Shown piece after piece: positions 6,300 through 54,980 of a stretch of DNA of 56,036 nucleotides. The position numbers were made by a program, and so were the translations under genes. Under the pieces are notes generated by a model that did no database searches, was not told where the DNA came from, and saw only the letters and a list, made by a program, of their open reading frames with translations. The stretch lies in the IMG/VR virus record IMGVR_UViG_3300002894_000009, positions 1 through 56,036 of that record. One strand, written 5' to 3'. The stretch comes from a virus. Lineage: Duplodnaviria > Caudoviricetes. Position 1 is the stretch's first letter; the number at the start of each line of letters is the position of its first letter.

Positions 6300-8489
6300 T
6301 CACTCCGCGGCGAAAAGGGGCATGGGCTCGGCAGCGGCGGCCGAACGGGGCGGGCGCATCTCGTCCTCGCGATAGTTCGCGGCGACGATGGCCTGGGCGA
6401 CCTGCGGGCAGACGGAGTTCCCGCACGCCCGGCCCTGCTGCTCCAGTGTGAGCGCGATCTGGGAGCCGTCTTCCAGCTCGCCGCGATCGATCACGTAATC
6501 GGCCCGGAACCCCTGTGCGTTGAACCGCTCGCGGGGCGTCAGCATCCGCATGCCGATATCGACGATGGCGTAGGGCTGGCCGTTCACGGTCACCGTGACG
6601 AGGCCGTGCCGGGGCTTCGCGGTGACGGTGTGCAGCGGCTCGTCGGCCGGCTGCGAGGGCAGGCCCTCCCCGTAGTATTTCGCAAGGAAGGCGTAGACCG
6701 CCGCGGCGTGGTTGCCGCCACCGGTCACCGTCGGCGCGGGCGCGTCGACCGGTCCGTCCCGACGGTCGGAGCCGCGCAGGTTCAGCATGTGGGCGGCGAC
6801 GATGCCCTGCTGGCAGCCCTTGCCGGTGATCGTCGAAACCGGCTCCTCGACCGACTTCGCGGGCTGGCCCGGATGCGATCCGGCGGTGTGCTGAGCGACG
6901 AAGGCCGCGACGAGGGTCTGGTGTCCGCCGGCGGCGGTGATGGTCGAGACGGGCTCGCGCGCGTCGGTGCCGGGCTTCGCCGCGCCGTTCCGCTCGGTGT
7001 TGTGCTGCGCCAGGAACGCGGCGACGACACCGGCCTTGCCCGCGCCGCCGGCCGTGATGGTGCCGACAGGCTCCTCGGCGGCCGATCCGACGGAGGCGCC
7101 GAACTGCCGGGTGAGATGGACGGCCGCAAGGCTGCCCTCGTTGCCGGTCGGGACGATGACGGGCGCCGGCTCGTCGATCGCACGGGCGCGCGGGTCCTGG
7201 CCGGGCCGCTCGCCGTAGCGGGGCACGAGGTAGCCGGACACGAGGGCCTGCGCGCCCGCGGTCGTGATCGTCGAGACCGGGGCGTCCGCGGGGTGAATGC
7301 CCTTGCGCGCCGCGTCGCCGCTGGTCTGGTCGACACGGATCAGGTGCGGGGCGACGATGCCGAGAGGTGCCGCGCCGCCGCCGTGCGTCTCGCTGTGATG
7401 GGAGGTCACCGTCGCGAGCGGCTGCTCCATCGCGTGGCCGGTGGCGCCGCGATTGAACTTGGTCACGAAGGGCGCGACGATCGCGTTCTGATCCTTCGGC
7501 GAGGCGCAGAGCGTGTGCAGCGGGTCGGCGGCATCACGGTTGCCGCCGCCCTGCTGGCCATAGGTGACGAAGGGCGTCACCAGGGCCTCGCCCCGGCTCG
7601 CCGTCATCGTGTTCAGCGGCTCGTCGAGCGGGTATTCCCGGCGCCCGCGGCTGTCGCCGTGGTTCACGCTGACGAGGAACGGCCGCACCGCGTTCACGAC
7701 GTAGCGCATCGTGCCCTTGGCGATGCGGGCCATGGTGGCGTCAGCAAGCGGACGGTTCGCGCGGATGTTCCAGCGCGCCTTGATCTCGGCGGAGGTCTCG
7801 AAGATCGACGGGCACGGGAGCGACCAGTCGATGATCTCGGCCGCGGTCCGCCAAGGCTTCAGCAGGCCGGACCGCACCGCCTCGGACTTCGGGTCGCCGT
7901 GCGTCGGCGCCGGCCACTCGATCGGGCGACCGTCGCGGCGAGCGACGAGGAACAGGCGCTTCCGGATTGTCGGTGCGCCGTAATCGCAGGCCCGCAGCTC
8001 GCGCCACTCGACCACGTAGCCCATCGCCTCGAAGGCCTGCACGAAGCTCTTGAAGGTCGCGCCGCGCTGGAGCGGGCACGGCTTGCCGTCATCGAGGAGC
8101 GGGCCCCAATCCTGAAACTCTTCGACGTTCTCCAGGGCGACGACTTTGGGCCGCTGCCACTTCGGCAGGCTCTTGATCCAGCGCACCCCGACCCACGCCA
8201 GGCCGCGGATCGCCTTCTCGCGCGGCTTGCCGCCCTTCGCCTTGCTGAAGTGCTTGCAGTCGGGGCTCATCCAGAGGAGCCCGACGGGTCGGCCGGCGCA
8301 CATGGCGCGGGCGTCCACGTTCCAGACGTCCTCCTCGATGTGGTGCGTGTCCGGATGGTTGATCCGGTGCATGGCGAGCGCGATCGCATCGTGGTTCAGG
8401 GCGAAGTCGGGATCCCGGCCGATCGCGGCCCGGATGCCCTCGGACGCGCCGCCGCCGCCCGCGAAGGAATCGATGATCAGGGGGCGCAT
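6300..8489 (-). CDS. DNA (cytosine-5) methyltransferase with repeat-expanded variable region
   Basis: DSFAGGGG (I), SPDC (IV), LENVEEF (VI), RKRLF (VIII), RMLTPRE (IX), GNSVCP (X). Confidence 0.93.
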   Translation of the reverse strand: MRPLIIDSFAGGGGASEGIRAAIGRDPDFALNHDAIALAMHRINHPDTHHIEEDVWNVDARAMCAGRPVGLLWMSPDCKHFSKAKGGKPREKAIRGLAWVGVRWIKSLPKWQRPKVVALENVEEFQDWGPLLDDGKPCPLQRGATFKSFVQAFEAMGYVVEWRELRACDYGAPTIRKRLFLVARRDGRPIEWPAPTHGDPKSEAVRSGLLKPWRTAAEIIDWSLPCPSIFETSAEIKARWNIRANRPLADATMARIAKGTMRYVVNAVRPFLVSVNHGDSRGRREYPLDEPLNTMTASRGEALVTPFVTYGQQGGGNRDAADPLHTLCASPKDQNAIVAPFVTKFNRGATGHAMEQPLATVTSHHSETHGGGAAPLGIVAPHLIRVDQTSGDAARKGIHPADAPVSTITTAGAQALVSGYLVPRYGERPGQDPRARAIDEPAPVIVPTGNEGSLAAVHLTRQFGASVGSAAEEPVGTITAGGAGKAGVVAAFLAQHNTERNGAAKPGTDAREPVSTITAAGGHQTLVAAFVAQHTAGSHPGQPAKSVEEPVSTITGKGCQQGIVAAHMLNLRGSDRRDGPVDAPAPTVTGGGNHAAAVYAFLAKYYGEGLPSQPADEPLHTVTAKPRHGLVTVTVNGQPYAIVDIGMRMLTPRERFNAQGFRADYVIDRGELEDGSQIALTLEQQGRACGNSVCPQVAQAIVAANYREDEMRPPRSAAAAEPMPLFAAE

Positions 8490-8941
8490 CAGGCGGCTTT
8501 CCTCGGGCGATAGGTCTGGGCGTGCTTCGTGACGTCGGCGTAGGAGGCGCCCTGGAGCGCCCGCCACGCGTGGCGGCACCATTCGAGGTTGAAGCGGTCG
8601 ATCGCGGCCTCGTCCGCCGGCAGCCGCAGCGCATGGGCGAGGAAGGACGCGACGCGCTCCTCGGCGATGGTCCGACCGTTCGGGCAGTGGCGCAGGGCCT
8701 CGCCGATCAGCCGCTCGACCTGGCGCTCGCGCAGCATCGCGCGGGCGTTGCGGGTCTCGGCGCCGGCCGGGAGCCCGACCGACGTGCCGTCCTCCGCGCA
8801 GAGGGCCCACGCCTCGGGGCAGACCGTGCAGGCCCAGACCTGGGCGTCGCGCAGGTCCGGCTCACGGGCACCGGCCTCGCGACCGGTGATGCGCTCGCAC
8901 TCGGTGCCGCAATCGGCGCAGTAGATGCCGAGGGCTCTCAT
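8489..8941 (-). CDS. Zinc-finger protein (DUF3268-like)
   Basis: CADCG...WACTVC...GLPA...R-x2-R pattern. Confidence 0.6.
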   Translation of the reverse strand: MRALGIYCADCGTECERITGREAGAREPDLRDAQVWACTVCPEAWALCAEDGTSVGLPAGAETRNARAMLRERQVERLIGEALRHCPNGRTIAEERVASFLAHALRLPADEAAIDRFNLEWCRHAWRALQGASYADVTKHAQTYRPRKAA

Positions 8942-9772: not shown

Positions 9773-10882
9773 TCAGCCCTCCGCCTCGACCGAGTCGAAC
9801 CCGGCCTTCCACTTGGCGAAGCGGCCCTCATCCTCGCGGATGGCGGTGATGACGCACCGCTTCTGCCCCGCCTTCGCGGCCTCGACGCCCTTCTTGAAGT
9901 CGGGGTCGTTCGGATCGACAGCCGGCTCCTCATCGGCGCCCTGCACTTCCTGCTCGGGTGCGGCGCTCGCCTTGATGCGATCGCGCGCCGCCTCGGCCGC
10001 GTTCTCGATCCGGGTGCGCTGAGCGCGCGAGAGCCGGTCCGCCTCGGCGTAAGGGGTCACCGCCGCCTCACAGTCGGCGATATCCTCCTCGGTGCGCGCG
10101 AGCTGCACGTCGTTCTCGAACTGAGCGACGACAGCCTCGACGTCGTCCTCGGCCTTCGGCGCGGCCTCCTCCTGCGTCGGTGCGGGCTGCTCGGTCGCCG
10201 GTGCCGGCTTCGAGGCGGTCAGGCGCGGCGGTCCGCTCGGGCGCGGCCCGGCGGGCTGGGTGCTGCTTTCGAACTGACGCGGCGGGGTGACGTCGCGGGG
10301 CGCGCTCTGGGTCGCGTCCTCGATCTCCTCGGCGGACTGGATGCCGAGCATCACCTCCGGCGCGTAGAGGCGGATCAGCATCGCCGCTGACCGCCACCGG
10401 AGCATGTGCTCGGGCATGGTCATGTACTTGGCGTTCTTGGTCCAACCGTCGGCCTTCGCCATCGCCATCGAGACGGCAACGGAGACGACCTCGCCGCTGT
10501 CCGCGAGCGCGGCGGAGGCGGTGACGGCGAGGTCGGCGCCCTGCCCTGCCGACTTCCACGTGATCCGGCTGGAGAACACACCCGACTTGTTGGCCCGGGC
10601 GATCATGTACTGCGTCTGCCAGCACGGCTTACCGGACACGACGGCGAGGTTCTGCATCACCGTGAGCGGGTCTTCGCCCATCCGGTCGGCGATGTTCAGC
10701 GCGATCAGGCAGTTCGGAAGCTTGCCCTGGAAGTGGGGCGGCACCAGCGCCGACTCCGAGAACACGCGGGCGACGCGCTGAGCGTGCTCGAACTTGTCGG
10801 GGCTCGCGAAGATGCCGACCGGGGCCAGGATCTGCGGCGGGCGGTGGTCGGCGACGGCGGGAAGCTGGGTGCGTGCGTTCAC
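9773..10882 (-). CDS. RecT-like single-strand annealing protein
   Basis: LVPPHFQGK-x2-CLIAL...PLTVMQNL...GKP...AKADGW...PEHMLRWRS...YAPEVMLG core; acidic/Pro-rich tail. Confidence 0.75.
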   Translation of the reverse strand: MNARTQLPAVADHRPPQILAPVGIFASPDKFEHAQRVARVFSESALVPPHFQGKLPNCLIALNIADRMGEDPLTVMQNLAVVSGKPCWQTQYMIARANKSGVFSSRITWKSAGQGADLAVTASAALADSGEVVSVAVSMAMAKADGWTKNAKYMTMPEHMLRWRSAAMLIRLYAPEVMLGIQSAEEIEDATQSAPRDVTPPRQFESSTQPAGPRPSGPPRLTASKPAPATEQPAPTQEEAAPKAEDDVEAVVAQFENDVQLARTEEDIADCEAAVTPYAEADRLSRAQRTRIENAAEAARDRIKASAAPEQEVQGADEEPAVDPNDPDFKKGVEAAKAGQKRCVITAIREDEGRFAKWKAGFDSVEAEG

Positions 10883-16822: not shown

Positions 16823-17170
16823 ATGTCGAGCGACGAGACCAAGCTGGAAGAGACCCTGCAGGCGAAGGGTCTCAACGCCCCGCGCCTCACGCCCGAGCTG
16901 ATCGATGCCTGCATCATCGGCGAGGCCTACCACGTCTTCCCGGGCACGACGCTGACCGTCTGCGCGCTCACCCTGCGCAACGGCTTCAATGTCACCGGCG
17001 AGAGCGCCGCGGCCAGCCCGGCGAACTTCGATCCGGAGATCGGTCGGCAGATCGCGCGGAAGAACGCCCGCGAGAAGATCTGGGCCTTCGAGGGATACCT
17101 GCTCCGCGAGCGGCTTGCCGACGAGGCGACCGCCGCGCGCGGTCAGACCGACGCCGTCCAGGTCGCCTGA
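16823..17170 (+). CDS. Gp49-family protein (N4 gp49/Sf6 gp66); candidate Acb4-type nucleotide sponge
   Basis: APRLTP...[19 protein letters not shown]-x-ASPANFD-x-EIG...A...IW-x2-EGYLL family signature. Confidence 0.85.
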
Positions 17171-17172
17171 TC

Positions 17173-17493
17173 ATGAGCGCCCTCGCCGACCTGTCCGATG
17201 CCGGCCTCGCCGACCTGATCGACACCGTGCGCGACGAGATCGTGCGCCGGAACGAGCTGCTGCGGAGCAATGCGTCGCCGTCGGCGAGGAGCCTCGTGCA
17301 GTGCCGGCGGTATGCGCTGCTCGCGCTCGGGCAGGCGGAAGAGCGGCTTCGGGCCGGCGCGGCGACCGATCTGCCGGCGGTGGCCCTCCCCGCGATCGAA
17401 GAGCCCCTCGTGCCGCGGCGGTCGCTCTTCAACGGCAGCGACGTGCGCCCGCTCGACGACGGCCGCCTGCCGGGCGGTCGCTACCACCCCTGA
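17173..17493 (+). CDS. Hypothetical protein
   Basis: 106 aa, follows Gp49-family gene. Confidence 0.55.
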
Positions 17494-17564
17494 AACGCGA
17501 ACCGCCCGGCCTGCTGGGGAGCGGGTGCCGGGCGGCTGCAATGTCCGAGATCAAGGTGAGACAA

Positions 17565-18092
17565 ATGAGTGCCAGAAATGCGCCTGCGCCGCAAGTCGAT
17601 CCGTCTTCGGTCGCTGCGGATCAACTGAAAACCATCATCGAGCGTATTGAACGGCTCGAAGATGAGAAGGCCGGCATCGCGGGCGATATCAAGGACGTCT
17701 ACGCGGAGGCCAAGGCGAACGGCTTCGACACGAAGGTCATTCGCAAGATCATCGCCATGCGCAAGCGCGATTACGATGAGCGCATGGAAGAGGAGGCGAT
17801 CCTCGAACTCTACATGCAGGCGCTCGGCATGCTGGCGGATACGCCGCTCGGGCGCGCTGCCGTGGAGCGCGAAGTTCGCTCCAACAACGTCCGGGCCGCA
17901 GCTCGGCGTCGCCCGGCGGATGATGGGCTGAAGGCCGCTGTCGCGGCGTTCGGCAAGTCGGTCCCGCTGACGGATGAAGAGCGCGCGCAGGGTGCCGTTG
18001 CGGCATTCGAGAAGGACGGCCAGCGCTGCTCGATCTCCTTCGGGGCTGGCGCGCAGGTCGATATCGAAGACGCGATCGCGGCGCGGGGCTGA
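17565..18092 (+). CDS. GapR-like (DUF2312) nucleoid-associated protein with C-terminal extension
   Basis: [19 protein letters not shown]...[17 protein letters not shown]...[10 protein letters not shown]. Confidence 0.9.
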
Positions 18093-23071: not shown

Positions 23072-23842
23072 TTATGGGTTGTCGGCCATCCACTTCTCCA
23101 CCACCGCTCGCCGATAGCTGTCCTCGCCCGAGAGAAAGGCGGAGAGTAGAACAGGCACTTTGTTAGTCGATACGGCTGTTCGCATCTCCGCTTCGAGTTG
23201 GGTGGCCATCCTCTTGAGTTGACTTCGGCCCGGCTCTTCAACGTATTGCAATCCGCCGTTTTGGTGCATCGATAGAGCAAAGTTTGCGAATTTGAACCTG
23301 CTGGCAGACTTGGCCAGATCCCCCCCATCCAGCGCTTTTGACGCCTCCGCGTTATTGGAAAGCAAATCGTTGTTGACCCGACTGTTTCTCAACTGCACCC
23401 ATAAAATCGCGGATCGAAAGGCGAGCATGTCGTCAAATTTCTGGCGAGCTTCCGCAAATTCGTAAGTCGGACCGTTGATCTTCCGTAAGAGTTTGTCGAT
23501 CTCAGATGCGGAGGACAGTACCTCTTCGGCTGGGGTCAGGCCGATCATGATGCTGTTTCCAAGCGATATGTAGGATTGAACCGCAAACGTCTCGGATATT
23601 GATTTTATTTCGGTGAGAACATCTCTCGCATTTCGGACCTGATCTCTGATGCGCGTTTCCAGGCCCCATCCTTTGAAAACCTCAATATTTGGCAGGGCGG
23701 TCAAGAGAAATAGCACTGTGGAGAATGTGCCGAGTGTTCGCGCAGAGGCGTTGTTTTGACGGATAGCCATCACGATTGTGGCTGCGGATGCTAGCGTGGC
23801 GAGCGCCAGCAGCATCACCGATGTGGTTGTCTCGATCGTCAT
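23072..23842 (-). CDS. Counter-oriented moron: membrane protein with two N-terminal TM helices
   Basis: Visibly lower GC than flanks; hydrophobic N-terminus then FKGWGLETR and a helical domain. Confidence 0.75.
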   Translation of the reverse strand: MTIETTTSVMLLALATLASAATIVMAIRQNNASARTLGTFSTVLFLLTALPNIEVFKGWGLETRIRDQVRNARDVLTEIKSISETFAVQSYISLGNSIMIGLTPAEEVLSSASEIDKLLRKINGPTYEFAEARQKFDDMLAFRSAILWVQLRNSRVNNDLLSNNAEASKALDGGDLAKSASRFKFANFALSMHQNGGLQYVEEPGRSQLKRMATQLEAEMRTAVSTNKVPVLLSAFLSGEDSYRRAVVEKWMADNP

Positions 23843-23894
23843 GCCGATGGTGTATCCGAAGGGGCTGCGAGGCAGAGGATAGCCTGAACGCGGA

Positions 23895-23944
23895 TTGACC
23901 CGACGGGCAATCCCTGCCAAATCCACAGTGTCGCGAGACGCGCG
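23895..23944 (+). promoter_or_regulatory. Late-promoter motif copy 1
   Basis: TTGACCCGACGGGCAA-N19-GTCGCGAGACGCGCG. Confidence 0.7.
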
Positions 23945-39804: not shown

Positions 39805-41462
39805 TGGCCGCCTCCTCGCAAGGAACCCCGCCCGTGAGCGCATCTCCCTTCGGCTTCGGCGCATCCATGGCGCCGGAGGATCTCGCCCGCCTGTTCGGCC
39901 GGATGCCGATCGGCGCGCCGCAGGGCTTCGCGCCCGTCGCTGAGAGCGAGGCCGACGTACAGCGCCTCGAGCGGGCCACCGGCATGGTGCCCCAGTCGAC
40001 TGCGCCCAAGCCCCGCGCCGGCCTCGTTGATGTCGCGCCGGCCACGCGGTCCGGCGCCATGACGGTGCCGCTGCCGCCCGCGCGCCCCGCCGAACTCTCG
40101 ACCTCGGAGGCGGATCTTCCCGCCGCGGGCGCCCAGCCGATCATGGCCGCGCCCGCCCCGACCGTAGCATCGAGCCCGGCCGCGCCAGAGGGCCCGTCCT
40201 TCGGCGACCGCCTCATGAAGGGGCTGAAGGACAACGGCGATTATCTCGGCGCACTCGGTGCCGGCCTGCTCTCGTCCCCGACGTGGCACGGCGGCGTCGC
40301 CGCGGCGATGCAGTTGGCGTCGAAGAGTGACAAGGACCGGGCGGCAACCGATCTGGCAAAGGTCGAACTCGGGCTCAAGCAGCGCAAGCTCGCGCAGGAA
40401 ACGTCGGCTCTCACCGGCAACGCCTCGTTCCTGAAGAAGGTCTATCCGGGGCTCTCCGATCAGGAGGCCATGGCGATGGGTTCGAATAGTTCGGCCCTCA
40501 TGGAAGCCCTCAAGATCTCTCGCGATCCGAACCATGGGCGCGAGAACGATCCGGCGGTGATTCGCGCTAAGGCGCAGGCGCAGGCTGAAGGCGCGGAAGC
40601 CGGCAAGCCCGAGAAGGCGAAGTGGCGGCAGGTGCAGACGCCCGACGGCGGCACGATGCTCTACAACGAGGACGATCCGGCCCAGAACCAGATGCTCGTC
40701 CAGGGCCAGCCGGTGCGGCCGGCGACCGAGGAGGAGCTTCAGCGGTTCGGCATCGCGCCAGGTCAGGGCGTGAAGATGACAGCAAAGGATGGTCCGGTAG
40801 CGATCGGGACGCCGCCGCGCCCGCAGGCCCAGACCTTCGAGCGCTCCGACGGCACGAAGGAGACTCGCGTCCTCAACTCGCGCACGGGTCAATGGGAGGC
40901 GCCCGATCTCGATGGCGGAGCCTCAGCGCCGGCGGCAGGCAATCCCTACGCGACGGGCAAATTCAATAACGAGCAGGGCAAGGCGGCCGGCTTCTCAGAT
41001 CGCATGCTCGGCTCCGAGCAGACGCTGCGCGGGCTGGAAGGGATCAACAGCGGCTTCGGCGGTGGCCTCGCGGGTACCGTGAGCGGCTGGACGCCGAACG
41101 GCATGAAATCGGCTGACCGGCAGCGCTTCGAGCAGGCGAAGCGGGATTTCGTTAACGCTCAGCTCCGCCGCGAGTCGGGTGCCGCGATCTCTCAGAAGGA
41201 GTTCGACAACGCAGATGCGCAGTACTTCCCGCAGCCCGGCGACAGCGCGGATGTGATCGCGCAGAAGCGGACGAACCGGCAGCGTGCGGTGGAGGCAATG
41301 GCCCGCGAGGGCGGCCCCTCGTACCGTCCGCATAGCGTGTTCGACGAGTCGGGCGCGATCGTACCGTATCAGCCGGGCGGCACGCCCTCCCCCGCGCCGC
41401 GCCAGCCCCTCACGCCGGCCAAGCGCCTGCGCTTCGATCCCGCAACCGGAGCCTTCAACTGA
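39804..41462 (+). CDS. Ejection (DNA transfer) protein 2
   Basis: QAKRDF-x-NA-x-LRRESGAAIS-x2-EF...YFPQPGD C-terminal motif. Confidence 0.75.
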   Translation: MAASSQGTPPVSASPFGFGASMAPEDLARLFGRMPIGAPQGFAPVAESEADVQRLERATGMVPQSTAPKPRAGLVDVAPATRSGAMTVPLPPARPAELSTSEADLPAAGAQPIMAAPAPTVASSPAAPEGPSFGDRLMKGLKDNGDYLGALGAGLLSSPTWHGGVAAAMQLASKSDKDRAATDLAKVELGLKQRKLAQETSALTGNASFLKKVYPGLSDQEAMAMGSNSSALMEALKISRDPNHGRENDPAVIRAKAQAQAEGAEAGKPEKAKWRQVQTPDGGTMLYNEDDPAQNQMLVQGQPVRPATEEELQRFGIAPGQGVKMTAKDGPVAIGTPPRPQAQTFERSDGTKETRVLNSRTGQWEAPDLDGGASAPAAGNPYATGKFNNEQGKAAGFSDRMLGSEQTLRGLEGINSGFGGGLAGTVSGWTPNGMKSADRQRFEQAKRDFVNAQLRRESGAAISQKEFDNADAQYFPQPGDSADVIAQKRTNRQRAVEAMAREGGPSYRPHSVFDESGAIVPYQPGGTPSPAPRQPLTPAKRLRFDPATGAFN

Positions 41463-44400
41463 TGGACGTGCCCGATATCGAGGTCGAAGGCCCGGACGGG
41501 CAGGTGTTCGCGTTCCCGTCCGGCACGGCCGATGGCGTGATGCGTACCGCCCTGCTGCGCCACTACCAGGGGGCGGGGAAGACTGCCTCGGCAGCCGATC
41601 CCGCGCCCAGCCCGAGCGCTCCGGCTCCCGCGAACGGCGGAGCTGCCGAAGCCATCGCGCGAGGACTCGTCGATGGCGTGCCGGTCGTCGGCCCCGTCGT
41701 CATGTCGGCGGCGAACAAGCTGGCGGCCGGCATCCGCTCGCTCAAGAACGACACGCGGTTCTCGGACGAGTTGAAGGGCATCGAGCAGCGCGGCGCTCAG
41801 GCTGCCGCTGAAAACCCGTGGTCGAGCACCGGGGCCTCCATGGTCGGTGGCGTGGTCGGCACGCTCCCGCTCGTCGCGGCCGCGCCGGCCGCCTTCGGTG
41901 CCGGTGCTGCGGCCTTGCCCGCACGCATGGTAGCTTCTGGCTTCTCTGGGACCGGACTCGGTGCGGCCGACTCTGCGGTTCGCAGTGATGGCGATATTGG
42001 ATCGGCGGCGACAGGTGCAGCGGTCGGTGGCGCCCTCGGCTTTGCCGGTCCGGCGATCGGAGCTGGTGTCGGCAAGATTGCTGGAGCGCTGACGTCGCGG
42101 GGCCGGTCGGGCGGCCTCGTGAAGGAGGCGCTCGAAGGTGTCTCCGAGAAGGATCTGGAATCCGCGCAGTTCCTCATCGAGCAGGCCCGCAACCTGCCCG
42201 GTGGCGGCGTCGCTCTGACCCTGGACGAGGCGCTGAACGCGGCGACAGGCGGACAGGCGACGCGCGCCTCGCAGCTCGCCCGCGTCGTCGGCAATTCCGG
42301 CGGTGAGGGCGGCCGGATCATGAACGAGTTCTACGCCGCGCGGCCCGCCTCGGTGGACAACGTCGGCAAGAGTGCCTTCGACCGGGTAGCCGAGCCGAAC
42401 CTGAAGCCGACGGAGGTGGGTTTCGACATCCAGGATGCGGCTCGGGCCGGCGTCGCACAGACCCCGGAGGGGCAGGCCCTCAGCGCGGCCCGCCGTGCGC
42501 AGGCGCCTCGGATCACTCCGGAGCAGGCCGGGCAGGCGATCCAGACCGATCTCGGCGGCGTGCGCGCGCTGCGCGAGGCGGCACGGGATGCGCGTGCGAA
42601 CGTCGATTATCGCCTCGCCCGCGAGGCGCCGGAGAATGTCGGCGTCGAGCGGATGATCACGGTGGAGCGGCCTGGCGAGCCGGTCGTGACCCGGCCAGAG
42701 GGCTCGCCGCGCTTCAGCGACGCCGCACCGCGTCCGATGGACCCGCCGCCTGTCGTCGAGTCCTCCGCCGCGGCCGGACCGGAAAGCCTTGCCCGCTTCG
42801 TGGCGCGCTACGGCGGTCTCCGGCTCGACGGCGACGTGCTCGCCACGGATCTTCACCGCTTCAACATCCCCGGTGTCGGCAATGTCGCGCGCGAGGGCGG
42901 CAAGGGCATCGACAACTTCTGGCGCGAGCGGTTGATCGAGGCCGGCTATCTACGCCCCGATCCCGATGGGGGTGCGGCGCGGGACATCACCAACGAGCTC
43001 CTGCGCAAGCTCCAGAATGAGCAGCGCGGCTATCCCAGCTTCCCCGTTGATGATGCGCGGCAGGCCGCGGCCGTGCGCGGGCGGCAGGGGCAGGTGACGG
43101 ACGAATTTCGAGCGGCGCAGTCGCAGGCGGAGAGCAGCCTGGACGAGGCGCTGAGCCGGGCCGGCGTGCCGCCGGAGAGCCTGCACCCGGAGATCCGCAG
43201 CCGCACGGTCGGCGCCCTGATGCGGGGCGAGCACGTCGATCCGCTCGACGCCTACGAGCGCACCGTTGCGGCAATGCGGGAGCCGCCGGCGCCTTACGTG
43301 CGCGGTACGACGATCACCGAGGAGATCCCGGACGTCCGCTTCATGCAGGTCGATCCTCGGCCTGCGCTGGCGGCGGTGGCGGAGCAGGGCCGCTTTGCCA
43401 AGGGCGACGTCCGGAGCGCTCTCGGCTCGGTTGAGCGCAATCTGTTCGAGCCCGGCGGCGACATAGACGGGAGCGTCGAGGGTCTGCTGAAGGCGCGCGA
43501 GCGGCTCGATTTCGATCTCAAGCAGGCCCTGGAGATCGGGGACGGCACGAAGGTGCGCGACCTGACGATCACCCGCAACGCCCTCGACCGGCAGCTCAAG
43601 CAGGTGCCGGAGGTGGCTACGGCCGACGCGAACTATGTCCGGAACTCGGCGCCCCTCGCCTCCTTCGAGCGACCGAACGCGCCGCTGAACCGGGTGACGG
43701 CGCGCGAAAACGTGCCGGGCGGTGAGCCGGGGCCGTTCCGCACCCCGGCGGAGCAGGTGCCGGAGGCGTTCACAGGGCCGACGGCGCTTCGCGAGGCCTT
43801 AGCGAACGGCGGACCTGGGACCCGTGAGGCGGTGGAGCGCCGGTTCTCGACGCAGATCCTCGACGCGGCCACCGACGCGCGAGGCGACGTGTCATCGGAG
43901 GCGCTGCGCACCGCGATGCGAGACAGCGCGGACGTGCTCGACCAGCTTCCGGCGCTCCGGGACCGTCTTTCGAACTTGGTGCTCGCCCGAGAGGGCATGG
44001 CGCGCGTCGAAGCCTCGCCGCTGGGGCAGATCGCCCAACAGCCGGACGTCAAGCATGCGATTTCGGTGCTGTTCCCGAAGAAGCTCGACGTGCTGGCGAA
44101 TTCGCAAGAGGAGATCCGCTCCGCGGTCCAGGCGCTTGCCCGCAACAACCCAAAGGCGGCTCGCGAGACAGTCCGGATCTATCTGGAGACGGTCTTCAAC
44201 GATGCGACGGAGACGACGAAGGGGGTTGCGAAGCTCTATGGCGGCGCCGGCTTCGCCTCGGCCGTCCGGGGCAACGGACAACGGCGCCATAACCTTGAGG
44301 CCGCGGTCCGGGCGCTCCCTGACGGCGATACCCTCTGGACCGGGCTCGACCGGATGCTGACGACGCTGGAGGCGACCGGCTACCGGCCACAGAAGGGGTC

Positions 44401-44770
44401 GGACACGGCCTTCAATCAGGCGATTCAGTCGCGGATGAAGGAGGGCACCGGCGCCGTCGGCCAAGCGATCACGGACGTAGTGTCTGGTGGGGCTGCGGGT
44501 GCGACCGTAGGCGGTCCGGGCGGTGCGCTCGGCGGCGCACTGGTCGGCGCTCGCCGCGGTGGCACGAAGGTCATTCAGGAGATGAGGATCCGGCGAGACG
44601 GCGAGGCGATCGCGCGCATCCTCACCGACCCGCAGGCTATCCCGATGCTGCGCCTGCTCGGAACGCAGAACCCCGGCGGGCGCGGTGCCGAGATCCTGAC
44701 CTCGAAGCTGATCCAGCTTGGTGGACGTGGCGTGTCGTCTGCGGCGCAGCCATCAGCGCCGCCGCGATGA
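41462..44770 (+). CDS. Large ejection (DNA transfer) protein 3
   Basis: 1102 aa; V-x-GPDG-x3-FP-x-GT N-terminus, Gly/Ala hydrophobic segments at both ends. Confidence 0.75.
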   Translation: MDVPDIEVEGPDGQVFAFPSGTADGVMRTALLRHYQGAGKTASAADPAPSPSAPAPANGGAAEAIARGLVDGVPVVGPVVMSAANKLAAGIRSLKNDTRFSDELKGIEQRGAQAAAENPWSSTGASMVGGVVGTLPLVAAAPAAFGAGAAALPARMVASGFSGTGLGAADSAVRSDGDIGSAATGAAVGGALGFAGPAIGAGVGKIAGALTSRGRSGGLVKEALEGVSEKDLESAQFLIEQARNLPGGGVALTLDEALNAATGGQATRASQLARVVGNSGGEGGRIMNEFYAARPASVDNVGKSAFDRVAEPNLKPTEVGFDIQDAARAGVAQTPEGQALSAARRAQAPRITPEQAGQAIQTDLGGVRALREAARDARANVDYRLAREAPENVGVERMITVERPGEPVVTRPEGSPRFSDAAPRPMDPPPVVESSAAAGPESLARFVARYGGLRLDGDVLATDLHRFNIPGVGNVAREGGKGIDNFWRERLIEAGYLRPDPDGGAARDITNELLRKLQNEQRGYPSFPVDDARQAAAVRGRQGQVTDEFRAAQSQAESSLDEALSRAGVPPESLHPEIRSRTVGALMRGEHVDPLDAYERTVAAMREPPAPYVRGTTITEEIPDVRFMQVDPRPALAAVAEQGRFAKGDVRSALGSVERNLFEPGGDIDGSVEGLLKARERLDFDLKQALEIGDGTKVRDLTITRNALDRQLKQVPEVATADANYVRNSAPLASFERPNAPLNRVTARENVPGGEPGPFRTPAEQVPEAFTGPTALREALANGGPGTREAVERRFSTQILDAATDARGDVSSEALRTAMRDSADVLDQLPALRDRLSNLVLAREGMARVEASPLGQIAQQPDVKHAISVLFPKKLDVLANSQEEIRSAVQALARNNPKAARETVRIYLETVFNDATETTKGVAKLYGGAGFASAVRGNGQRRHNLEAAVRALPDGDTLWTGLDRMLTTLEATGYRPQKGSDTAFNQAIQSRMKEGTGAVGQAITDVVSGGAAGATVGGPGGALGGALVGARRGGTKVIQEMRIRRDGEAIARILTDPQAIPMLRLLGTQNPGGRGAEILTSKLIQLGGRGVSSAAQPSAPPR

Positions 44771-44986
44771 GCCCTGGCGGCGATGTTCACGATAGGACCA
44801 AGCGCCTCCAACAGCGGCGAGCGACAATAGGAGTACGAGCACCGCTCCTGCCCCGATCTTCGACGAGGCCCACTCGACCGCATCCGGCACCGTCGCATGC
44901 AGCACGGCTCGAAGAGCCAGCATAGCGGCTGTGAAGAGGACGAGGCAGATAGTGATGTAGAGGATTTTGTTTAGCGCTGGGCGCAC
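44753..44986 (-). CDS. Small two-TM membrane protein (start uncertain)
   Basis: ILYITICLVLFTAAMLAL and AVLVLLLSLAAVGGAW helices; downstream of the Rap1a gene. Confidence 0.5.
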   Translation of the reverse strand: MRPALNKILYITICLVLFTAAMLALRAVLHATVPDAVEWASSKIGAGAVLVLLLSLAAVGGAWSYREHRRQGSSRRR

Positions 44987-45330
44987 GGATACGCTGCCTT
45001 GAAGGACTGAACGATGAAGACCCTCGCGTCCGTATGCAGGAGTTGTGGCGCACGTCGTCCGGCTTCTGTGAAAACGCGGATGTACTGCTCTGGATTCACG
45101 TTGCCGGGCGGGCACCAGAGTTGCTCTTTTTTACCAAGCCTGAATATCTCATGCATGTGAATAAGCCCGGCTATGTAGCCCGTGCAAAGATTGCTGTCTG
45201 CCTCGCATTCCTTGAGCATCATGAGGGCGTTAAATTCATTGGCTCGCAACTTCGAAGGCGGGTAGACCGCCAGCGCAACGGCGATGGCGAAAATGCGTTT
45301 GCGCGAGGAAGCGGAATTCATACCGAACAT
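44971..45330 (-). CDS. Rap1a/Tai-family immunity protein
   Basis: Signal peptide; C...C-x-GY-x2-G...C-x-P...A-x-YPC four-Cys signature. Confidence 0.8.
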   Translation of the reverse strand: MFGMNSASSRKRIFAIAVALAVYPPSKLRANEFNALMMLKECEADSNLCTGYIAGLIHMHEIFRLGKKEQLWCPPGNVNPEQYIRVFTEAGRRAPQLLHTDARVFIVQSFKAAYPCAQR

Positions 45331-45403
45331 CCCGCCACGCTATCACGCCATTCGTTGATGAAAAGCGCCGGCCACCCTCAAGGAGCGGCTCTAGCCTCAT
45401 CGG

Positions 45404-45485
45404 CGACCCCGGGGCGGGATTTGAACCCGCATACTCCTTGGCTTGGAGCCAACCCAAGGCGCTAAACCGGTCGCTACCCGGGACC
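45404..45485 (-). ncRNA. Non-canonical tRNA-like element (or pseudo-tRNA-Trp)
   Basis: TCCCGGG/CCCGGGG acceptor stem, TAGC at 8-11, perfect T-arm GCGGG-TTCAAAT-CCCGC, anticodon arm CCTTGG-GTTGGCTCCAAG-CCAAGG, no encoded CCA end. Confidence 0.7.
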
Positions 45486-45541
45486 TCGTGGTCATCGGTC
45501 CTGCTAGGGCACCTCTACCCACGCCGCGGCGCAAACAATCT

Positions 45542-46330
45542 CTAACTCAGATTTGAGCTTCGGGGAAGATGGAAGTGTCTAGCTCTTAGTTCCAGGCGAG
45601 ACGCGATAGAAACAATATCCCATGTGGATAGCTGCTTAAGCTCGCAGTTTTCATCGGGGGCCGGCCAAATCTGGGTCATTTCAGGCACCTGATAGCTGGA
45701 AACAATGACGTCGTCTAACATGTCTTCCTGGTGGCTAAAGCAGTGCACGAGCAGTCGGCCAATTGAAAACGTAGTGCTTTGTGCATTAGTCACGGCAAAA
45801 GAAGGTGCAGGCGCAGAAATAGTCGGATATATTCCAACGGCTGATACGTGGAACTCGCAGGGAGCGGGCTCCTTCATTGTGGCCATCCAAACCTGCCACC
45901 CCTTGATGGGCTTTATCTCACTCCTGAACCTCGATCTCTGCGTTGCGGTTGTGCAAACAAGTCTAGGGTTCGTGAACTCCATCACGATGGTCATCATCGT
46001 AGCCCACGTTGCCACACAAGTCGCGTCAACCGAATTATTGATTGATGACCCCTCACCCCTGATAATTGGCAGCAGGATGGGCTTCGATCTATTCTGAAGT
46101 GCACTTCCCCAATTATTGTTGCATTTTGCGCACAAAATCCTCAGCTTCTGCTGTAAAAGATCCCTCCGGCGAGTGAGAGGGCCGGATCCTGCTGTGCCGA
46201 ACGATCTAATGGTGTGGGCTGTATGTGAGAAACGCCATGGAACAGAGTCTCTAACCCACCTTGGAAAGATATGCTCTTCGCTTCTGGCCGGTGAATTGCA
46301 ATATATACACTTTTTTGTCGAAAGTTTCAT
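45542..46330 (-). CDS. HNH-type (His-Me finger) nuclease-like moron protein
   Basis: CIYC...SEEHIFPRW...LCAKCNN; visibly AT-richer than flanks; alternative start 46384. Confidence 0.75.
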   Translation of the reverse strand: MKLSTKKCIYCNSPARSEEHIFPRWVRDSVPWRFSHTAHTIRSFGTAGSGPLTRRRDLLQQKLRILCAKCNNNWGSALQNRSKPILLPIIRGEGSSINNSVDATCVATWATMMTIVMEFTNPRLVCTTATQRSRFRSEIKPIKGWQVWMATMKEPAPCEFHVSAVGIYPTISAPAPSFAVTNAQSTTFSIGRLLVHCFSHQEDMLDDVIVSSYQVPEMTQIWPAPDENCELKQLSTWDIVSIASRLELRARHFHLPRSSNLS

Positions 46331-46467
46331 CTTTATCCAGGTTGTGCCTGGACGATAACCGTACTTTTGCAGTAGGTTAAGCATCCATCGGTTGAGTCGC
46401 ATCTCCGATGGTGACTGGGCCGGGCCGCTTTCACAAGCGCCCGGCTCAACTGCTTCTGCGGCGCCCC

Positions 46468-46510
46468 TTGACCCGTCGGGCAAAACCCGCGATTTGATCA
46501 CCGTCCCGAG
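46468..46510 (+). promoter_or_regulatory. Late-promoter motif copy 3
   Basis: TTGACCCGTCGGGCAA-N19-GTCCCGAG; hairpin AAGGCCGCTC/GGGCGGCCTT follows at 46529-46553. Confidence 0.65.
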
Positions 46511-47301: not shown

Positions 47302-47387
47302 CCTGACCCGATTCCGCTGAAGGCCTGACCAACCTGCACGCTGCCAGCGCTGTGGGAACGGACGGTCGCGCGCGCCTGGAGCCCGAG

Positions 47388-48647
47388 ATGACCGGCCTTA
47401 TCGACTTCTCGATTTTCGCGGCGGAGAACGCCACGGCAGCGCCTCCGATCAACTGGCCGGAGGGCATGCCGGCCAACGCCGTGAACAACTCTTCGCGGGA
47501 GGAAATGGCGGCACTGGCTCGTTGGCGGGCCGACGACAGCGGCGTCCTCGGCGCGACGATCGCCGGCAACGCGGTCTCGGTCACGACCTTTCAGGGCTTC
47601 AAGGCCAGCCACTTCAACAGCGCTTTCCGCCTCTCGTTCGCGCTGCCGCAAGAGAACACCGGCCCCGTCACGCTCAACATCGACAACACCGGGGCTCGCC
47701 CATGGCGTCGCCTCCGCGGCTTCGAGTTTGCGCCCGGCGATCTTCAGATCCTCGTCACCCATGACGTGATCTGGAACCCTGTCATCGGCGCCTTCATCTC
47801 CCGGGCGCCGACCTTCGACACGCCCGGCCGGATCAGCGCTTTCGCGACGCCCGAGGCGATCCCGCCCGGGTGGGTCGAATGCGACGGCCGAGAGCTTTCC
47901 CGCGTCTCATACGCCGCCCTATTTTCAGTCATCGGCACGGCCTATGGCGCCGGCAACGGCTCGACCACGTTCAACGTGCCGGATCTGCGCGGTCGAACCC
48001 TGTTCGGGCGCGATGGCGGCGTCGGTCGCCTGACGGGCGCCGGCGGGCTCGGCGGCAATGTCGGCAACGCGGGCGGCTCCGAGACCGTGACGCTGAACGA
48101 GCTGCAGTTGCCCTCGCATGGGCATGCGGGCTCAACGGGTGGCGCCGGCGGGCACGACCACGGCGGCGGAACGGGGCAGGCAGGCCAGCACAGCCACGGG
48201 GGCGTCACCGGCGATTCGGGCGGGCACACCCACTCGGCTTCGTCCGACCAGCAGGGTAACCACGCGCACACCGGGACGACCGACAACAACGGCGAGCACT
48301 CGCACCAGCAGGGCTATGCCGTGGGTGTGGCAGGCTCCGGATCGACCAACCGCACCGTGTCGGATCTCGCGCCTACGGGGGCGCGCACCGGCATCGGCAT
48401 CACGGATGCCGCCGGCGTCCACCAGCATACCTTCACGACCGCAGACGCCGGAGCGCACTCGCACGGCATTACGGTCAACGGCGTCAGCGACCATGCCCAC
48501 GTGATCAACGCGGACGGTGGCCACGCTCACACGATCCCGGGCGTCGGCGACCATACCCATTCGCTGAACATCTCGGTGACGGGCGGCAGCCAAGCGCACC
48601 CGAACATGCCGCCCGGCCTCGTCGGCGTCTTCGCGATCAAGGGCTGA
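47388..48647 (+). CDS. Tail fibre with tail-collar domain and HxH-repeat needle
   Basis: GWVECDG-x3-SR-x2-Y-x2-LF-x-VIGT-x-YG-x-GNGSTTFNVPDLRGR collar; 11 HxH motifs; H-x-N-x-PP end. Confidence 0.9.
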   Translation: MTGLIDFSIFAAENATAAPPINWPEGMPANAVNNSSREEMAALARWRADDSGVLGATIAGNAVSVTTFQGFKASHFNSAFRLSFALPQENTGPVTLNIDNTGARPWRRLRGFEFAPGDLQILVTHDVIWNPVIGAFISRAPTFDTPGRISAFATPEAIPPGWVECDGRELSRVSYAALFSVIGTAYGAGNGSTTFNVPDLRGRTLFGRDGGVGRLTGAGGLGGNVGNAGGSETVTLNELQLPSHGHAGSTGGAGGHDHGGGTGQAGQHSHGGVTGDSGGHTHSASSDQQGNHAHTGTTDNNGEHSHQQGYAVGVAGSGSTNRTVSDLAPTGARTGIGITDAAGVHQHTFTTADAGAHSHGITVNGVSDHAHVINADGGHAHTIPGVGDHTHSLNISVTGGSQAHPNMPPGLVGVFAIKG

Positions 48648-54929: not shown

Positions 54930-54980
54930 CCTGTCTGGGGGACAGGGGGTCGTCGGTTCAAGTCCGGCCACTCCGACCAT
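54930..54980 (+). repeat. attR core (51 bp, 3' half of tRNA-Pro)
   Basis: Identical to 1071-1121; preceded by an AT-rich arm region. Confidence 0.97.

Follow-up and report, generated by a model that had tools for sequence, protein, structure and literature searches.

A tRNA-derived element behind a nuclease-like gene in a provirus accessory slot is probably a damaged tRNA copy, not a partner RNA

Phage transfer RNAs (tRNAs) that escape host defences are functional and chargeable, carry point changes in the 7-nt anticodon loop and come mostly from lytic phages with tRNA clusters. In YrlA, a long helix stands in place of the anticodon arm. Published work reports phage tRNAs that counter tRNA-targeting defences (PMC10264068; for PARIS and the T5 tRNA, PMC11464382), and other papers deal with T4 SegB, a free-standing homing endonuclease whose gene neighbours phage tRNA genes (PMC2330249), with nuclease genes found at boundaries of exchange (PMC10448857), and with the classification of the His-Me finger (HNH) nucleases (PMC5714182). 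Here, we analyze a tRNA-like element in a 56,036-nt stretch of viral DNA (Duplodnaviria; Caudoviricetes), i.e., positions 1 to 56,036 of IMG/VR record IMGVR_UViG_3300002894_000009, hereafter the window. The element lies on the minus strand, directly downstream of a gene for a nuclease-like protein of 262 amino acids (aa). The first-pass annotation, made from the letters alone, preferred to read the two as a two-part defence or addiction module, or the RNA as a decoy, and named a decaying tRNA as the simpler alternative. We find that the element is probably ordinary, i.e., a damaged, non-decoding tRNA copy, and not a partner RNA of the nuclease. The features of the element itself are as follows.

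45405..45483, minus strand: tRNA-derived element, 79 nt, called tRNA-Pro(tgg) by ARAGORN; acceptor stem, T arm and T loop intact.
45436..45459, minus strand: extended "anticodon" arm, a near-perfect 24-nt palindrome, supported by the minimum free energy fold and pair probabilities of 0.96-0.98.
45437..45446, minus strand: perfect tandem duplication, CCAAG-CCAAG, in the 3' strand of the arm, which would be of normal length with one copy removed.

On the minus strand, 45485-45401 reads exactly as the first-pass annotation wrote it, and the acceptor stem with its 9-bp extension, U8-A9, the T arm and the missing CCA are all seen as it described them. The acceptor stem (TCCCGGG/CCCGGGG) has 7 bp, the first pair being U.G, and is extendable to 9 bp through G.U and G-C pairs; the T arm, GCGGG-TTCAAAT-CCCGC, has a 5-bp stem and the consensus T loop. 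Stem pairing is complete throughout (acceptor 7/7, T stem 5/5, 6 plus 3 pairs in the arm). When the 56-kb window was shuffled 100 times with its dinucleotides preserved, ARAGORN made two calls in all; because a call is thus rare in shuffled sequence and the T loop follows the consensus, the element is tRNA-derived and not a chance match.

A canonical tRNA has A14, R15 and G18-G19, a purine at position 37, and a variable loop that is either 4-5 nt or long with a stem. The 7-bp acceptor stem, the 5-bp T stem and the T-loop consensus of the element agree with the canonical form; an open 7-nt anticodon loop with U33 and purine 37, the D-loop core and a 4-5-nt variable loop are missing from it. The D stem has 3 bp in the ARAGORN model, and the aberrant D loop, CCGGTTTA after a 3-4-bp stem, contains GG and has C at positions 14 and 15. 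The discriminator position is U and no CCA is encoded; CCA is encoded by the tRNA-Pro(ggg) of the window, by both internal tRNAs of the related provirus G204 discussed below, and by the host-type tRNAs shown.

The arm, CCTTGG-GTTGGCTCCAAG-CCAAGG, is laid out as two CTTGG-like units, CT, and two CCAAG units. ViennaRNA, in which tertiary contacts and modifications lie outside the model, folds it at the pair probabilities given above into a rod in which a G.G mismatch separates 6 bp from a further 3 bp, with a GCUC tetraloop at the tip. The ARAGORN cloverleaf is built otherwise, with a CTTGG/CCAAG anticodon stem, a 7-nt loop GTTGGCT and an 11-nt variable region without a stem, into which the second CCAAG copy falls; it places a C at position 37 and leaves nucleotide 26 missing, and its anticodon stem has a pair probability of 0.0 in the ViennaRNA ensemble. 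The rod is at -33.7 kcal/mol, against -28.1 to -28.9 kcal/mol for the 12-nt loop of the first-pass annotation and -27.5 kcal/mol for the ARAGORN cloverleaf. Since the rod pairs at such high probability and both open-loop forms are disfavoured, the anticodon loop is probably not open at all but closed into a rod, as far as the folding model goes. The extended arm of the first-pass annotation was therefore right, whereas its loop of 12-14 nt is only one of two cloverleaf readings of an arm that is predicted closed.

A single 5-nt event would account for the extra length of the arm, and there are two candidates. One is the tandem CCAAG-CCAAG in a Pro-UGG-like gene, with loop GTTGGCT and non-canonical nucleotides at positions 32 and 37; the other is an imperfect GTTGG copy in a Trp-CCA-like gene, with loop CTCCAAG and canonical loop positions. 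We also compared the element with 47 tRNAs (46 of one Methylorubrum genome plus the tRNA-Pro of the window), with which it shares 43-56 of 79 positions; no parent isoacceptor stands out by identity (Ser 56, Pro-tgg 54, Met 53, Trp 49 of 79). If the element is a relic, its arm illustrates that a single short duplication is enough to make an anticodon arm close on itself as a palindrome, while a tRNA finder still accepts the sequence.

The covariance models leave the element out. At the gathering score, Rfam matches in the window only the tRNA-Pro(ggg) at 1044-1117, and a direct search of the window with the tRNA model RF00005 (gathering score 29 bits) at E ≤ 10 returned two matches, neither of which is the element. 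In three Methylorubrum/Methylobacterium genomes, 138 of the 141 RF00005 matches score 51.6-75 bits and the other three 29.8-36.3 bits. The best tRNA-clan match of the element, in a 501-nt search at E ≤ 10, is tRNA-Sec (RF01852; 21.1 bits, E 0.11, cut-off 47), and weaker ones are YrlA (RF02553; 14.7 bits against a cut-off of 69) and mascRNA (RF01684; 13.9 against 42.5). A tRNA-Sec identity was rejected on the score and on the loop, which is without UCA. Two of the checks proposed in the first-pass annotation came out differently, ARAGORN calling the element and the Rfam tRNA models leaving it below the gathering score.

These tests bear on the reading of the element as a working, odd decoding tRNA, whether as Pro(UGG) with the 11-nt variable region of the ARAGORN model or as a tRNA whose anticodon loop has expanded. 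The element passes the default thresholds of ARAGORN, and unusual tRNAs do occur in this phage group, e.g., the tRNA-Trp of G204, which is odd yet plausible at 28.2 bits and with CCA encoded. Beyond the tRNA-Sec match, however, the element stays below 21.1 bits on the tRNA clan; the pair probability of the ARAGORN anticodon stem, C37, C14 and C15, the U discriminator and the lack of CCA also count against decoding, and we regard it as highly improbable.

Two further features define how the element stands to the nuclease-like gene.

45542..46330, minus strand: 262-aa Cys4/EH/N protein with weak HNH_5 likeness; stop codon at 45542-45544.
45484..45541, minus strand: spacer of 58 nt from the nuclease-like stop codon to the element; 63.8% guanine plus cytosine (GC), like the element and unlike the open reading frame (ORF).

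The first-pass annotation had placed the element about 55 bp downstream of a co-oriented, AT-richer nuclease gene. The measured spacer agrees, and the ORF has 49.7% GC against 68.5% for the whole window. It had also expected that, in a two-part module, a tRNA-like RNA would accompany homologues of the nuclease. An 11-member profile found 540 relatives in at least 600 matched stretches of the genome collection, and the best 80 loci were kept; these are mostly from Alphaproteobacteria, on bacterial contigs with mixed, housekeeping neighbours. ARAGORN at default settings, which detects the element of the window, found a co-oriented downstream tRNA or tRNA-like gene in 0 of the 80 loci. Lowering its thresholds yielded 30 calls at 90% and 545 at 80%, which is noise, and none of them was co-oriented and directly downstream. 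Any tRNA within about 2.5 kb was seen in 8 of the 80 loci: in four of the eight it is co-oriented and 150-580 nt upstream of the gene (L047, L050, L067, L077), and among the other four are one tRNA 2 kb upstream and three downstream on the opposite strand. By a rough estimate of tRNA density, a gene placed 150-580 nt downstream of a co-oriented tRNA in 4 of 80 loci exceeds expectation, which suggests island-type insertion beside tRNA genes. We scanned 143 of the 151 flanking ORFs against Pfam (eight, from L092-L096, were left out); no family occurs more than five times, the IS1595 transposase being found five times and integrase twice. In this sample of loci the 262-aa family appears as a gene on its own, with neither an RNA nor a protein as a conserved partner, and the element seems to have no family-level functional tie to the nuclease-like gene.

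Relatives of the element itself were searched for by pattern and by alignment. For the arm pattern, viral and genome contigs alike gave 0 matches. The pattern of T arm plus acceptor stem matched four archaeal stretches, with no ARAGORN tRNA in the two that were scanned (L001, L003), and two unrelated viral tRNAs, for Met and Leu. The D-arm pattern gave 0 matches in viral contigs and two chance matches in metagenome contigs. A blastn search of 45380-45560 against 201 genomes of the host-type family produced only matches of 16-43 nt, mostly to the T arm. No second copy or relative of the element was found in any collection scanned, the records nearest to the window lying outside these collections.

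On another reading, the element would be a trans-acting partner of the nuclease-like protein, i.e., an RNA antitoxin, a decoy or a guide, or a decoy against host tRNA-cleaving defences. Its adjacency and co-orientation suit such a role, the uncharacterised 262-aa family leaves room for such a substrate, and phage tRNAs that counter tRNA-targeting defences have been published (PMC10264068, PMC11464382). However, none of the 80 homologue loci has a co-oriented downstream tRNA or tRNA-like gene, no neighbour is conserved, and the element is unique in the collections scanned; there are no tandem repeats of the RNA-antitoxin kind, and the predicted rod would offer an anticodon nuclease no anticodon loop. 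We therefore do not prefer the two-part module or decoy of the first-pass annotation, and consider such a partnership very unlikely.

The window is a provirus record integrated in a tRNA-Pro(ggg) gene (1044-1121), with a tyrosine integrase at 1147-2259. The 51 bp at 1071-1121, which span tRNA-Pro(ggg) from its anticodon stem through its 3' end, recur at 54930-54980 as a perfect direct repeat, and the right copy is a 15.6-bit RF00005 fragment. The element sits among tail genes, on the opposite strand to them, between a 1102-aa tail protein (41462-44770) and a collar-domain fibre (47352-48647). Weaker relatives of the tail protein (42-43% identity) are found in Methylorubrum genomes, and the early region encodes a 367-aa protein with a GapR-like DNA-binding domain (16989-18092, plus strand); the domain and the tail relatives point to an alphaproteobacterial host. 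The early region also holds an 836-aa protein with a C-5 cytosine methylase domain (6300-8810, minus strand). The following features surround the element and its neighbour.

45380..46464, minus strand: insertion of 1085 bp comprising leader, ORF, spacer and element; boundaries ambiguous by 1-2 nt.
46382..46464, minus strand: leader of about 80 nt with hairpins GCCGGGC/GCCCGGC and CCATCGG/CCGATGG; common only to L011.
45397..45403, unstranded: left copy of the 7-bp direct repeat TCATCGG.
45492..45498, unstranded: right copy of the 7-bp direct repeat TCATCGG.
44971..45330, minus strand: Rap1a-like immunity protein gene (Pfam PF18602, E 2.1e-13).
46464..46500, plus strand: promoter-like element TTGACC, 17 nt, GATTTGATCA, before the tail-fibre genes; right border of the slot.

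The insertion was recognized by comparison with 12 related viral loci that were found via the tail protein (42-92% identity). In blastn, homology stops at 45373-45389 and resumes at 46462-46465, and in L008 and L006 the edges meet (45377-45379 / 46462-46464), i.e., the site is empty; the joined edges show that the window carries an insertion of 1085 bp. A repeat scan revealed no convincing target duplication or terminal inverted repeats of it. The slot is empty or holds other cargo in 12 of 12 related loci, among which ARAGORN finds no tRNAs: L011 has the leader of about 80 nt in common with the window and then a different, membrane-type ORF, and L005 has several other small ORFs. On this comparison, the slot is a hot spot for accessory genes. 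The L011 copy of the leader, at 10298-10380, lies ahead of a family-less membrane-type cargo protein of 219-260 aa, and the leader common to both might serve accessory genes as a portable promoter or leader module. The promoter-like element at the right border is found in all seven relatives compared there, including those with tail proteins only 42-45% identical. The Rap1a-like gene, whose family is one of type VI secretion immunity proteins, follows the element directly and in the same orientation; it is also variable, blastn in the relatives matching its edges only.

The inserted unit is present or absent between relatives and of foreign composition, as morons are. The insertion has 52.8% GC and the GC content at third codon positions (GC3) of its ORF is 0.54, while spacer, element and 3' tail are at about 64%; this gap between the ORF and the region of the element hints at separate origins. 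A minus-strand consensus scan returned 0 promoters and terminators in the moron unit, and no terminator-like site between the nuclease-like ORF, the element and the next gene; please note that alphaproteobacterial promoters may escape such a scan.

On balance, we lean, with measured confidence, toward the element being a tRNA-derived relic or pseudo-tRNA, passenger DNA in the moron slot of a provirus. A tRNA gene would have come in as cargo, either together with the low-GC ORF or on its own; its anticodon arm would have closed into a rod through a duplication of 5 nt; the element would then no longer serve translation, and its adjacency to the nuclease-like gene would be a by-product of cargo piling up in one slot. 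The decaying tRNA that the first-pass annotation had kept as an alternative is accordingly the better-supported reading, given the failure on tRNA covariance models, the predicted closed rod and the absence of such an RNA downstream of the gene in the 80 homologue loci.

Several observations weigh against such a relic. All stems are intact, the T loop is consensus, and there is little random decay beyond the arm and the D loop. With every stem whole and the top half perfect, the lesion is either young or constraint acts on the top half, and for this reason functional readings (processing signal, decoy, recombination site) keep some probability. The element is co-oriented, 58 nt past a stop codon and not preceded by a terminator-like site, which suits a co-transcribed RNA, and provirus G204 offers one further case of a tRNA placed after an accessory gene. 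Since the collections scanned yielded no relatives of the element, neutral evolution is as little shown as constraint. A lineage-specific function of the element is possible.

Among the functional readings, a cis-acting tRNA-like processing or stability element deserves some weight, although we think it unlikely. The top half would be recognized by RNase P, RNase Z or the CCA-adding enzyme, and cleavage would set the 3' end of the nuclease-like messenger RNA (mRNA) and split off the Rap1a-like cistron, with a rod in place of a loop that is no longer needed. tRNA-like top halves act as processing signals elsewhere, e.g., in mascRNA and tmRNA. This reading fits a top half that is perfect above an aberrant D loop and anticodon arm, and likewise the co-orientation, the short distance to the stop codon and the lack of a minus-strand terminator-like site between the ORF, the element and the next gene. 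However, nothing equivalent stands behind the other cargo genes of the slot (L011, L005), the fold as a whole is not more stable than shuffled sequences (z -1.14 for the element, -0.61 with flanks), and the score on the mascRNA model is far under its cut-off.

The flanks bear on another reading, in which the element is a DNA-level site, i.e., the target or scar of site-specific recombination. Integrases that target tRNAs might use it as a secondary attachment site, or it might have been produced when an integrase or transposon acted aberrantly in the anticodon arm of a phage-borne tRNA gene. The attachment identity of the provirus itself starts in the anticodon stem of tRNA-Pro(ggg), and the lesion of the element lies exactly in the anticodon arm, as a perfect 5-nt tandem duplication within a palindrome; moreover, the element is 15-25 nt from the insertion junction and has the 7-bp repeat on both flanks. 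Both copies of TCATCGG are present as the first-pass annotation had stated, but a repeat of this kind is expected by chance in 2.5% (25-nt flanks shuffled) to 5.7% (random 79-nt segments of the window) of cases; the repeat is real yet carries little weight and is not significant on its own. The insertion contains no integrase or transposase and is marked neither by a target duplication nor by terminal inverted repeats. A duplication is not what tyrosine recombinases normally leave behind, which counts against this reading too, and we consider a recombination site improbable.

The boldest reading is an "anticodon-less" tRNA mimic, with a perfect top half for tRNA-handling enzymes and a sealed arm, co-transcribed with the HNH_5-like gene and acting as punctuation or as a decoy/antidote. 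We give it a small chance. If true, the mimic would punctuate transcripts by fixing the ends of mRNAs from prophage accessory genes, or else serve as a decoy or antidote that checks the neighbouring nuclease or a host tRNA-targeting enzyme during lysogeny. If the element is the relic that we favour, it adds another case of tRNA-type cargo in decay within an accessory slot of a prophage, and is of little importance.

The relic reading can be set beside other tRNAs of the phage group. RF00005 was searched in 10 related viral records, where most matches are at or near record ends or are short fragments; we take these to be attachment-site tRNAs or their remnants, which is confirmed for G206 only, where a tRNA-Pro(ggg) attachment site lies beside the integrase. 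G204 has two internal tRNAs, a tRNA-Gln(ctg) of 55.6 bits and the tRNA-Trp(cca) mentioned above, with stems of 3 bp in its small D arm and of 6 bp in its anticodon arm. The pair is co-oriented behind the terminator hairpin of an Abi_alpha gene (L164:971-1913; Pfam E 2.1e-23; PADLOC candidate PDC-S47), in another variable slot, syntenic to about 23.98-24.05 kb of the window. In L166, a 77%-identical Abi_alpha homologue, gene and hairpin are kept and the tRNAs are absent, indicating that the tRNAs are independent cassettes and not gene partners. A general "defence gene plus tRNA" module was rejected on this locus. The G204 Abi_alpha protein was matched in only 2 of 301 host-family genomes. On these arrangements, tRNAs in this phage group are small independent cargo that lands behind accessory genes. 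The matching slot of the window holds a 284-aa low-GC ORF (23072-23926, minus strand; GC3 0.62, region 55.9% GC), to which no Pfam or PADLOC family was assigned. The G204 cassette resembles the element in being small tRNA-type cargo in a variable slot, on the strand opposite to the structural genes and directly behind an accessory gene. It differs in that CCA is encoded in its tRNAs, whose anticodon loops are of 7 nt and whose scores reach 55.6 and 28.2 bits; the element of the window lacks CCA, stays below 21.1 bits and is predicted to have a closed rod, and the sequences are not alike.

The neighbouring 262-aa protein is the more promising by-product of this analysis. Family members align with it from the ATG at 46330 on, which makes this codon the most likely start. 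When 1.84 billion representatives were searched exhaustively with HMMER, 4396 proteins were found at E ≤ 0.001, and 1255 at the stricter E ≤ 1e-10; among the best 150 proteins listed, most are 250-300 aa long, and the closest non-self relative among the matches listed has 36% identity. Word-based searches found only the protein itself, with no relative in viral or genome contigs, and the phage collection was likewise without a match, whether to the DNA or to the protein. Across the 41 members aligned, C8, C11, E19, W25, C67, C70, N71, W74 and W109 are invariant and H20 is kept in at least 90%; the spacing from EH to CxxCN is about 47 residues in the 262-aa protein. AlphaFold2 models the protein confidently (predicted local distance difference test 87.4, predicted template-modelling score 0.88), with a strand at 62-66 and a helix from 68.

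Annotation of the family is scarce. Pfam HNH_5 (PF14279) gives 19 bits for the 262-aa protein, below the cut-off of 27.5, and matches 10 of the 41 members at E ≤ 0.01 (best E 1.1e-5). PADLOC matched 0 of the 41; NCBIfam gave one weak, unrelated SWIM/SEC-C match among them, PHROGs one match to a family of unknown function, and the ESM Atlas only "hypothetical protein" clusters. A match to the RIG-I C-RD (E 9.6e-4, 1 of 41 members) was taken as chance arising from the Cys spacing and discarded. Foldseek against the PDB returned no match at E < 0.04 and a profile search of PDB sequences 0 matches; BFVD has a single structural match, an uncharacterised myovirus protein (E 4.2e-5, template-modelling score 0.46), and these searches brought up no known relative for the C-terminal stretch of about 170 residues. 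The "HNH-type nuclease" of the first-pass annotation is thus a reasonable but unproven label, weakly supported: CxxC, EH and CxxCN are present and conserved, whereas the Pfam score is below threshold. With its 4396 representatives, the family has a confident predicted fold and no solved or named relative, and it is scattered as a solitary gene that is sometimes directly behind tRNA genes.

Compared with the systems described so far, the locus shares parts with several. It is like HNH_5 (PF14279) in the CxxC...EH...CxxCN pattern conserved across the 262-aa family and unlike it in the subthreshold score, the orphan C-terminal part and the lack of a PDB match. As in SegB-type cassettes, an intergenic block of nuclease-like and tRNA-type genes is present or absent between related phages; unlike them, the 262-aa protein belongs to no recognised homing-endonuclease family, and its best 80 loci are on bacterial contigs. 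With the defence-escaping phage tRNAs (PMC10264068, PMC11464382), the element has in common a virus-carried tRNA-type gene whose anticodon arm is unlike that of host tRNAs; it differs from them in showing no open loop and failing the tRNA models. Finally, the element scores below every cut-off for YrlA, mascRNA and tRNA-Sec and is a member of none of them, and yet, like all three, it joins a top half of acceptor stem and T arm to a non-canonical lower half. If that top half serves as a processing signal or decoy, the element would be a compact bacterial counterpart of the tRNA-like processing modules.

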